Source: an uncultured Dehalococcoidia bacterium (GTDB lineage Bacteria; Chloroflexota; Dehalococcoidia; Lucifugimonadales; GCA-2712585). Taken from it: DNA of 64,000 nucleotides. Below, piece after piece: positions 35,267 to 35,734 of this stretch (positions within the stretch are counted from its first letter, which is position 1; each line of letters begins with the position of its first letter). The notes under the pieces were generated by a model, which was not told where the DNA came from, did not search any database, and worked only from the letters and a program-made list of their open reading frames with translations. Location: NCBI GenBank assembly GCA_964418665.1, contig CAYQLZ010000007.1:29886-93885 (forward strand), given 5' to 3'. The translations under genes and the position numbers were made by a program.

Positions 35267-35734
35267 TTAATTTCCCAGCTTGTCCAGCTCCCCGAGGATC
35301 TCCTCCGGGGTGGGCAGGGAACCCGGCGCGTACTCTTGCCGAAACGCCACGTTGCCGCCCTTGTCCACGATGACTATGGCCCGTCGAGGCGCACCCATGG
35401 CGTCGTTGAAAAGACCGTAGTCCTTGGTCATCGCGCCGTGGGGATGAAAGTCCGCCAGCAGGGGAAACTGCACGTCGCCCATGGACTCCGACCAGGCTCT
35501 GTGGGTATGCTGGCTGTCGCAGCTGACGCCCAACACCTGGGCGTCTCTCTCCTCAAACTGGGCGTTGGCCCTGTTGAATGAGGAGACTTCGTTCGTTCAA
35601 CCGCCTGTGAAGTCGAAGACGTAGAAGGCGAGGACTACGCTCTTCTGCCCCTTGAATTGGTTGAGGGATACCTGGTTGCCCGACTGGTCGGGAAGGGTGA
35701 ATGCCGGCGCTGATTGTCCGATTTCGGCTACCAT
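35267..35734 (-). CDS. AhpE-like peroxiredoxin with an in-frame TGA (predicted selenocysteine, U46) at the peroxidatic Cys position
   Basis: The track shows only the C-terminal 89 aa (35267..35536). The same frame is open from the ATG at 35734 (AGGAGG upstream): MVAEIGQSAPAFTLPDQSGNQVSLNQFKGQKSVVLAFYVFDFTGG-TGA-TNEVSSFNRANAQFEERDAQVLGVSCDS... The TGA at 35599-35597 replaces the Cys of the Prx motif F-x-x-x-F-T-x-x-C-x-x-E. Confidence 0.75.
35549..35585 (-). promoter_or_regulatory. candidate bacterial SECIS hairpin for the peroxiredoxin UGA
   Basis: Starts 11 nt after the UGA: CUCCUCA-UUC-AAC-A-GGGC-CAAC-GCCC-A-GUU-UGAGGAG. The stems are 7 + 3 + 4 bp, and the apical loop is about 29 nt from the UGA. 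Confidence 0.45.

Follow-up and report, generated by a model that had tools for sequence, protein, structure and literature searches.

A predicted AhpE-type peroxiredoxin from Dehalococcoidia with selenocysteine at its active site and two selenocysteine-associated hairpins downstream of the UGA

A gene on the minus strand of a contig from an uncultured Dehalococcoidia bacterium (Chloroflexota; assembly GCA_964418665.1, contig CAYQLZ010000007.1) very probably encodes an AhpE-type peroxiredoxin (Prx) with selenocysteine (Sec) as its peroxidatic residue, and is thus a predicted selenoprotein gene. We analyzed a stretch of 64,000 nucleotides of this contig (positions 29,886 to 93,885; hereafter the window, whose own numbering is used throughout), in which the gene, prx, is complete at 35267..35734. 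An original prediction made from the letters alone had proposed a selenoprotein split by the calling of open reading frames (ORFs), and it was correct in both observation and interpretation. Direct reading of the sequence confirms the minus-strand frame it described, which opens with an ATG (35734-35732) behind the ribosome-binding site AGGAGG (35752-35747, with a 12-nt spacer), ends with a TAA (35269-35267), and contains a single in-frame TGA (35599-35597). This is codon 46, in the motif T-G-G-U; it aligns with Cys45 of AhpE and is read here as Sec. The read-through product has 155 residues and contains ...FYVFDFTGG-U-TNEVSSF..., or, in a fuller active-site stretch, ...KSVVLAFYVFDFTGG-U-TNEVSSFNR...; orthologs of the same length with TGA are found in 75 genomes. 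The truncation caused by mechanical ORF listing was also seen as described, since the sole entry for this frame is an 89-aa GTG-initiated tail (35267-35536), and the public gene call for the window's own prx is an 89-aa fragment as well.

With Cys put at the TGA position for the profile search, the product matches Pfam AhpC-TSA (PF00578) over its full length (4e-36, 124 bits, profile positions 1-123 of 124). M. tuberculosis AhpE takes the first seven places among the sequence matches to solved structures (E 7e-28, about 100 bits), ahead of the next family at 78, and in the alignment the TGA falls on Cys45, Thr43 on Thr42 and Arg118 on Arg116. For structural comparison the AlphaFold model of an ortholog was used, not one of the window protein (P0001, 67% identical to the window Prx; predicted local distance difference test, pLDDT, 95.6). 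The top 12 fold matches of this model in the PDB are again AhpE, at full length (about 153 aa) and with template modeling (TM) scores of 0.93-0.96 in both directions; TMq and TMt are both about 0.94 against AhpE, compared with a TMt of about 0.7-0.87 against Prx1/AhpC-type structures. Sequence and model together argue that the window Prx is, as had been suggested, of the AhpE type; it is about 150 residues long and has no C-terminal extension. The active-site context proposed at the same time, F-P-x-x-F-T-x-x-C-x-x-E, holds for the Thr and the catalytic position but not for the Pro, whose place aligns with Val39 in the window Prx. An NCBIfam scan of the product gave no model above its cut-off; the PrxU equivalog NF040737 scored 68.6 bits, below its cut-off of 270, so the window Prx is not a PrxU equivalog. 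Because no NCBIfam model reaches its cut-off, annotation pipelines leave prx split.

The TGA is widely conserved. We scanned one genome per species and kept the 80 best-matching loci, among which codon 46 is TGA in 75 and TGC in five, the kind of Cys/Sec alternation that the original prediction had proposed to look for. The TGA loci come nearly all from Dehalococcoidia, joined by one Promineifilaceae, one 'Armatimonadetes' and Candidatus Entotheonella, and their products show 47-85% protein identity across 75 species-level genomes. All five TGC loci are from Acidobacteria and have the canonical context FYPLDWSPVC; together with 75 database proteins they make up the Cys forms found at the UGA column. 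Matches in protein searches were of three types: apparently full-length proteins of 55-67% identity with a 'W' at the UGA site (nine proteins, P0001-P0009), many C-terminal fragments of 87-103 aa on long contigs, and true Cys forms of at most 48% identity. The segment in front of the TGA is retained and conserved in the orthologs, which removes one way in which the proposal might have failed. When codons 1-45 are compared with those of six relatives, synonymous and nonsynonymous differences are about equal in number (14 and 15 against the relative at locus L005), and the C-terminal part behaves alike; the N-terminus is therefore coding and constrained.

These observations bear directly on explanations of the TGA that do without Sec. 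If prx were a nonsense-inactivated pseudogene, at most a 45-aa and an 89-aa piece would be made, and gene callers and NCBI indeed annotate fragments only; two relatives (L001 and L002), with the same gcvP-cupin-prx-trmI context as the window, are called as exactly such 45-aa and 89-aa pieces. Nevertheless, the persistence of the TGA over this range of species and identities, the purifying selection on both halves, a Prx fold that spans both pieces and RNA structures that are co-conserved with the TGA and linked to Sec make pseudogenization highly improbable, as had been anticipated. Alternatively, the UGA could stand for a standard amino acid, be it Trp, Gly or Cys, through stop reassignment or near-cognate read-through, a reading that seems to be backed by the public gene calls with W on short ENA contigs. 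The two of the nine 'W' proteins that we checked both turned out to be TGA translated with genetic code 4 on short ENA or metagenome contigs, and the call for P0008 also passes a true TGA stop to gain a false 24-residue C-terminal extension via two further TGAs. In addition, 21 of the window's 63 gene calls use TGA as their stop, the window encodes a dedicated tRNA-Sec, the codon is followed by Sec-specific hairpins, and a peroxidatic Trp or Gly would leave a dead enzyme; we consider decoding as a standard amino acid very unlikely. Least credible of all is a sequencing or assembly error that turned TGC or TGT into TGA: three Logan assemblies, made from separate sequencing runs, contain the 468-nt gene at 100% identity and with its TGA, and the TGA recurs in the 75 other genomes. 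The 'W' peroxiredoxins attributed to genetic code 4 calls are P0001-P0009, with loci L083 and L084.

The mRNA downstream of the UGA contains two hairpins, of which the original prediction had foreseen one. That stem-loop, H1 (35586..35548, minus strand; columns 14-52 counted from the U of the UGA), exists with slightly different dimensions, the stem having 8 + 3 + 4 bp and beginning 10 nt past the UGA instead of 7 + 3 + 4 bp and 11 nt; its apical loop CAAC lies 29 nt after the UGA. In the window sequence taken alone the stability of H1 is modestly above chance (-25.1 kcal/mol, z = -2.3, with 4 of 200 shuffles folding equally well), and its significance comes from family-level evidence. An alignment of 71 distinct sequences is gap-free over the 60 nt that follow the UGA, and we counted pairs on named consensus helices at columns 17-21/45-49 and 24-28/38-42, the window's upper stem being in another register. 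On this structure 79% of cells pair, against 27-54% with the partners slid, and the covariation score is 0.218 compared with 0.113 in shuffles, none of 500 of which reached the observed value. Double changes occur in seven of the ten pairs, some joining synonymous third positions; pair 21-45, for instance, is G-C in 42 sequences and A-U in four, and pair 18-48 is C-G in 58 and U-A in nine. The hairpin is centered at column 33 in nearly all sequences.

The second hairpin, H2, was not anticipated and is the better conserved one. It lies at 35545..35525 (minus strand; columns 55/56-74/75), and reads GACGCCCA-GGUGU-UGGGCGUC; its G-G-U loop comes 59-60 nt after the UGA, and the peptide corresponding to the hairpin is D/N-A-Q-V-L-G-I/V. 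All eight pairs form in each of 73 distinct Sec-form sequences and in none of 34 Cys forms, which are metagenome genes encoding the same AQVLG peptide and serve as the control. Synonymous choice in the stem is limited to codons that preserve pairing: Ala is GCC in 68 cases and GCT in seven, never GCG or GCA; Gly is GGC in 67 and GGT in eight; Leu is CTG in 61 and TTG in 14; and pair 57-73 is T-A in 69 and C-G in four. In the loop, the third position of the Val codon is unconstrained (G 28, A 17, T 16, C 14). Ala codons vary freely in the control Cys forms, with GCG in 27, GCA in four and GCC in three. Mean folding energies differ accordingly between Sec and Cys forms for H1 (-17.2 versus -7.8 kcal/mol) as well as H2 (-11.9 versus -4.9 kcal/mol) at equal G+C content (0.58 and 0.57). 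The five genomic Cys forms match the metagenome ones in their hairpin behavior, giving 39 Cys-form sequences overall without H1 or H2. From this contrast between Sec and Cys forms in both hairpins it follows that H1 and H2 are RNA-level features tied to Sec.

Codon choice next to the UGA is also strongly skewed. The preceding Gly codon (window 35602-35600) is GGU in 68 of 76 Sec-form loci, where the Gly codon preferred in the window is GGC, and the second codon upstream ends in U in 55 of the 76. This bias could reflect either UGA context or a possible helix with columns 74-80. Such a long-range helix, between columns -3 to 3 and 74-80, is pairable in 93% and present in 14 of 76 minimum free energy folds. 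It consists mostly of G-U pairs between conserved residues and shows no covariation, and we do not take a helix that buries the UGA as established.

By analogy with the known bacterial pathway, SelB-GTP with Sec-tRNA-Sec would be recruited at UGA 46 by mRNA structure just downstream, within the coding sequence, and Sec would be inserted in place of termination. The recoding signal would comprise the two Sec-specific hairpins, H1 being variable in sequence with its pairing kept and H2 being invariant with a canonical G-[G/U] loop. Which of them would bind SelB can be discussed in the light of the bacterial Sec insertion sequence (bSECIS) model, which asks for a loop of 3-9 nt, a folding free energy of -7.5 kcal/mol or lower and 16-37 nt from UGA to loop (PMC13188914). 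The loop itself should have a G in its first two positions, typically as N1-G-[G|U]-N-N2 with N1 and N2 paired (PMC13188914). H1 fits in spacing (29 nt) and energy, and its loop in the window, CAAC, has no G; H2 fits in loop (G63-G64-U65-N66-C/U67), stem and energy, and its distance of 59-60 nt is outside the range. In the fdhF mRNA of E. coli, 11 nt separate the UGA from the minimal hairpin, and SelB makes contact with U17 and G23 (PMC8659212). H2 resembles this SECIS (40 nt, with a minimal 17-nt hairpin and the loop GGUC containing G23/U24) at its apex, CA-GGUN-(C)UG compared with GCA-GGUC-UGC. It also resembles it in its linker, which once H1 is folded amounts to about 10-13 nt against 11 nt; with columns 4-55 folded alone, the median number of unpaired exterior nucleotides separating the UGA from the base of H2 is 11.5, and most values are 10-13. 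H2 differs in its linear distance to the UGA of 59-60 nt, a span that includes a 33-39-nt hairpin, and in lacking the bulged U.

We prefer the interpretation that the signal is bipartite, with H2 as the hairpin that may bind SelB and folded H1 as a spacer, and hold it to have about an even chance of being right. An ordinary single-hairpin SECIS, in which H1 binds SelB and H2 is accessory (for example as a ribosome pause or mRNA stabilizer), is a serious competitor that we rate at somewhat under even; it touches the sub-mechanism of recoding only and leaves the selenoprotein call as it is. The spacing of the H1 loop lies within the range of the model, and H1 is found in every Sec form (the weakest at -9.4 kcal/mol) and covaries. 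In the largest subclade its loop begins with A-G-G; of all 71 sequences, 32 show a G within the first two positions of the loop. Yet the required G is absent from the other 39, the window included, and the loop varies from 3 to 14 nt, whereas H2 is much more strictly conserved and has a consensus loop. Moreover, a rhodanese gene of the same genome, described below, has a short stem, like H2 and unlike H1, whose G-G-C loop follows the UGA by 17 nt. Going one step further, the bipartite arrangement might represent a new SECIS class, in which H2 sits 60 nt off and H1 as a spacer brings it to about 11 nt, combined with Sec-linked remodeling of the active site (Pro lost, Cys72 gained); we offer this compound proposal only tentatively. 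We found no description of a two-stem-loop bacterial SECIS in an incomplete coverage of the literature.

Several results speak against the picture of a Sec-Prx with a two-hairpin signal and have to be set against the evidence above. Neither hairpin alone satisfies every published bSECIS criterion. The letters of the H2 loop are also dictated by the conserved Gln-Val-Leu, which weakens the resemblance to fdhF and may make it partly coincidental. A search of 35200-35800 against Rfam at E <= 10 gave no SECIS family, the sole match being a chance snoRNA. RNAalifold predicts no consensus structure from the 71 aligned sequences, probably owing to the register shift of the H1 upper stem between subclades, and it is for this lack of a consensus that pairs were counted on the named structure. 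At the protein level, the Pro of the PxxxTxxC motif is absent from the window Prx, which has Val39. Finally, the 64-kb window yielded no selA, selB or selD; the original prediction had named missing Sec machinery as a possible objection, and on this point the window offers the tRNA-Sec but not the three sel genes.

In a neighbor-joining tree of 85 Sec forms and 75 Cys forms, built with the active-site columns masked, the Sec forms make up one clade with no Cys form within, a pattern that is consistent with a single Cys-to-Sec switch. At the motif Pro column the Sec forms have Val (76) or Ile (9), whereas all 75 Cys forms have Pro. Since the conserved motif of Sec-peroxiredoxins has been given as PxxxTxxU (PMC13188914), the Sec clade departs from it by replacing Pro with V/I. 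None of the 85 Sec forms deviates at T43 or R118. Cys72 is present in 72 of these forms and in five of the 75 Cys forms, which mostly have Val; in the window it is encoded by TGC at 35521-35519 in the context GVS-C-DS. This residue could act as the resolving one in a selenenylsulfide; alternatively, the UGC codon might be retained because it pairs in the RNA with the region that immediately precedes the UGA. We infer no more than that Val39 and Cys72 may be adaptations to selenium. Judging from Prx chemistry, the selenolate of U46, placed by Thr43 and Arg118, would attack the peroxide and yield a selenenic acid. This would then be reduced by a thiol partner, for which thioredoxin or the clade-specific Cys72 are candidates.

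Further features of the window relate to the Sec trait. A tRNA-Sec gene (selC) with anticodon TCA and an encoded CCA end lies at 51462..51558 on the minus strand (Rfam RF01852, 75.7 bits against a cut-off of 47; also called tRNA-SeC by ARAGORN). It is located immediately downstream of a Cys-type thioredoxin gene (WCVPC) at 51649-51978, also on the minus strand; lutA/lutB-like genes, a tRNA-methyltransferase-Maf fusion, tatC and an NAD synthase are its other neighbors. The original prediction had counted a second gene with UGA in place of a catalytic Cys, and this is indeed present as a predicted selenoprotein, a two-domain, 3-mercaptopyruvate sulfurtransferase-like rhodanese at 42876..43706 on the plus strand. 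Its TGA (43578-43580) stands at the catalytic Cys in the active-site loop H-U-QAGIRA, gene callers end the gene at 43580, and NF008557 matches with 134 bits, under its cut-off. The hairpin CCGUGC-GGC-GCACGG (43592-43606) has 6 bp, and its GGC loop starts 17 nt after the UGA. UxxG rhodanese-related sulfurtransferases are listed among selenoproteins (PMC13188914), and the window gene resembles them by U-Q-A-G in its catalytic loop; as a family separate from prx, it matters here only as a separate line of evidence for the decoding of UGA as Sec in this genome. The metagenome-assembled genome behind locus L019 (isolate 10f4566d) is recorded in BSepDB with 46 selenoprotein genes, a top-ten bacterial selenoproteome (PMC13326102).

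These two genes, prx and the rhodanese, were the only candidates in a scan for in-frame TGAs with coding on both sides, for which the codon model was retrained after a first codon-usage scan had been contaminated by antisense ORFs. Other regions were considered and rejected. At 16208-17398 there are two adjacent ORFs (168 and 195 aa) with a TGA stop and a 96-nt gap, and at 26241-28097 two adjacent ORFs (304 and 299 aa) with a TAG between them; judged by this ORF layout, neither is a split selenoprotein. The region 15436-16173 (minus) looks like two separate adjacent genes and not a read-through gene; by eye it is HicA/HicB toxin-antitoxin-like, the TGA stop of the toxin being directly followed, in frame, by an antitoxin-like ORF. 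A four-domain rhodanese at 60001-61584 (plus) has a normal stop and is no selenoprotein; it has 527 aa and Cys-type sites and lies 16 kb from the Sec-rhodanese. Directly after the Sec-rhodanese, a low-G+C island (43721-45729, plus; G+C at third codon positions, GC3, of about 0.46 compared with about 0.8 elsewhere) contains an ORF without family match and a D12-class N6-adenine DNA methyltransferase, and was probably acquired horizontally.

In its genomic neighborhood, prx lies where a glycine-cleavage cluster ends, as part of a same-strand run comprising gcvT, gcvH, gcvPA, gcvPB, cupin, prx, trmI and HD (33809-40589, minus). A single promoter-like site was seen, overlapping the start codon of prx, and terminator-like sites were absent; prx is therefore probably co-transcribed with its neighbors. 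A link between gcvP and prx exists in 12 of 82 compared loci (L001-L006, L015, L020, L026, L029, L048 and L069), and trmI accompanies the gene in 20 of 82. The order gcvP-prx-trmI recurs in two subclades whose Prx are only about 50% identical to each other and is absent in most of the family. With synteny this patchy (12/82), we do not claim a functional coupling of prx with glycine cleavage.

The way in which these genes are stored has consequences for their use. Public databases hold prx as a 45-aa piece and pieces of 87-103 aa, or with a false Trp, and as no NCBIfam cut-off is reached, a widespread antioxidant selenoenzyme of Dehalococcoidia/SAR202 type is left unnamed. The Sec clade also provides a clean natural comparison for the replacement of Cys by Sec, with the switch coupled to the loss of the motif Pro. 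Should the two-hairpin reading be true, prx would be a test case for the maximum distance between a SelB hairpin and its UGA, and would bear on SECIS-based gene finders and on the engineering of Sec insertion.

Among characterized proteins, the closest relative is AhpE of M. tuberculosis (Rv2238c), a 1-Cys peroxiredoxin that is reduced by mycoredoxin-1/mycothiol. It is the best match in sequence and structure and shares the active-site Thr and Arg as well as the lack of a C-terminal extension. The window Prx differs by Sec in place of Cys45, Val in place of the motif Pro and its origin in the Chloroflexota, and most members of the Sec clade have an additional Cys72. Within the same incomplete literature coverage, we found nothing that links AhpE with Sec in this sense.

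The broader comparison is with the Sec-Prx family (TxxU), whose founding member PrxU from Eubacterium acidaminophilum was described by Sohling et al. in 2001, and which is abundant in marine metagenomes, with 43 genes in the Sargasso Sea and 253 in GOS (PMC1088965, PMC2398784, PMC13188914). Dehalococcoidia, in turn, are already on record as rich in selenoproteins (PMC13326102), and BSepDB may already hold these prx genes. The window Prx shares with this family PF00578, Sec for the peroxidatic Cys in T-x-x-U, widespread Cys homologs, a putative SECIS within the coding sequence and an occurrence in marine and soil metagenomes, including a TARA contig. Its clade is set apart by the short AhpE-type architecture, the motif V/I-xxx-T-xx-U and the two-hairpin signal. 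The gene is largely ordinary, since bacterial selenoproteins of its class are known and are routinely split in gene calling; what may be slightly unusual is its recoding signal, in which the Sec-specific H2 has a canonical loop at a non-canonical distance, together with the missing Prx Pro.

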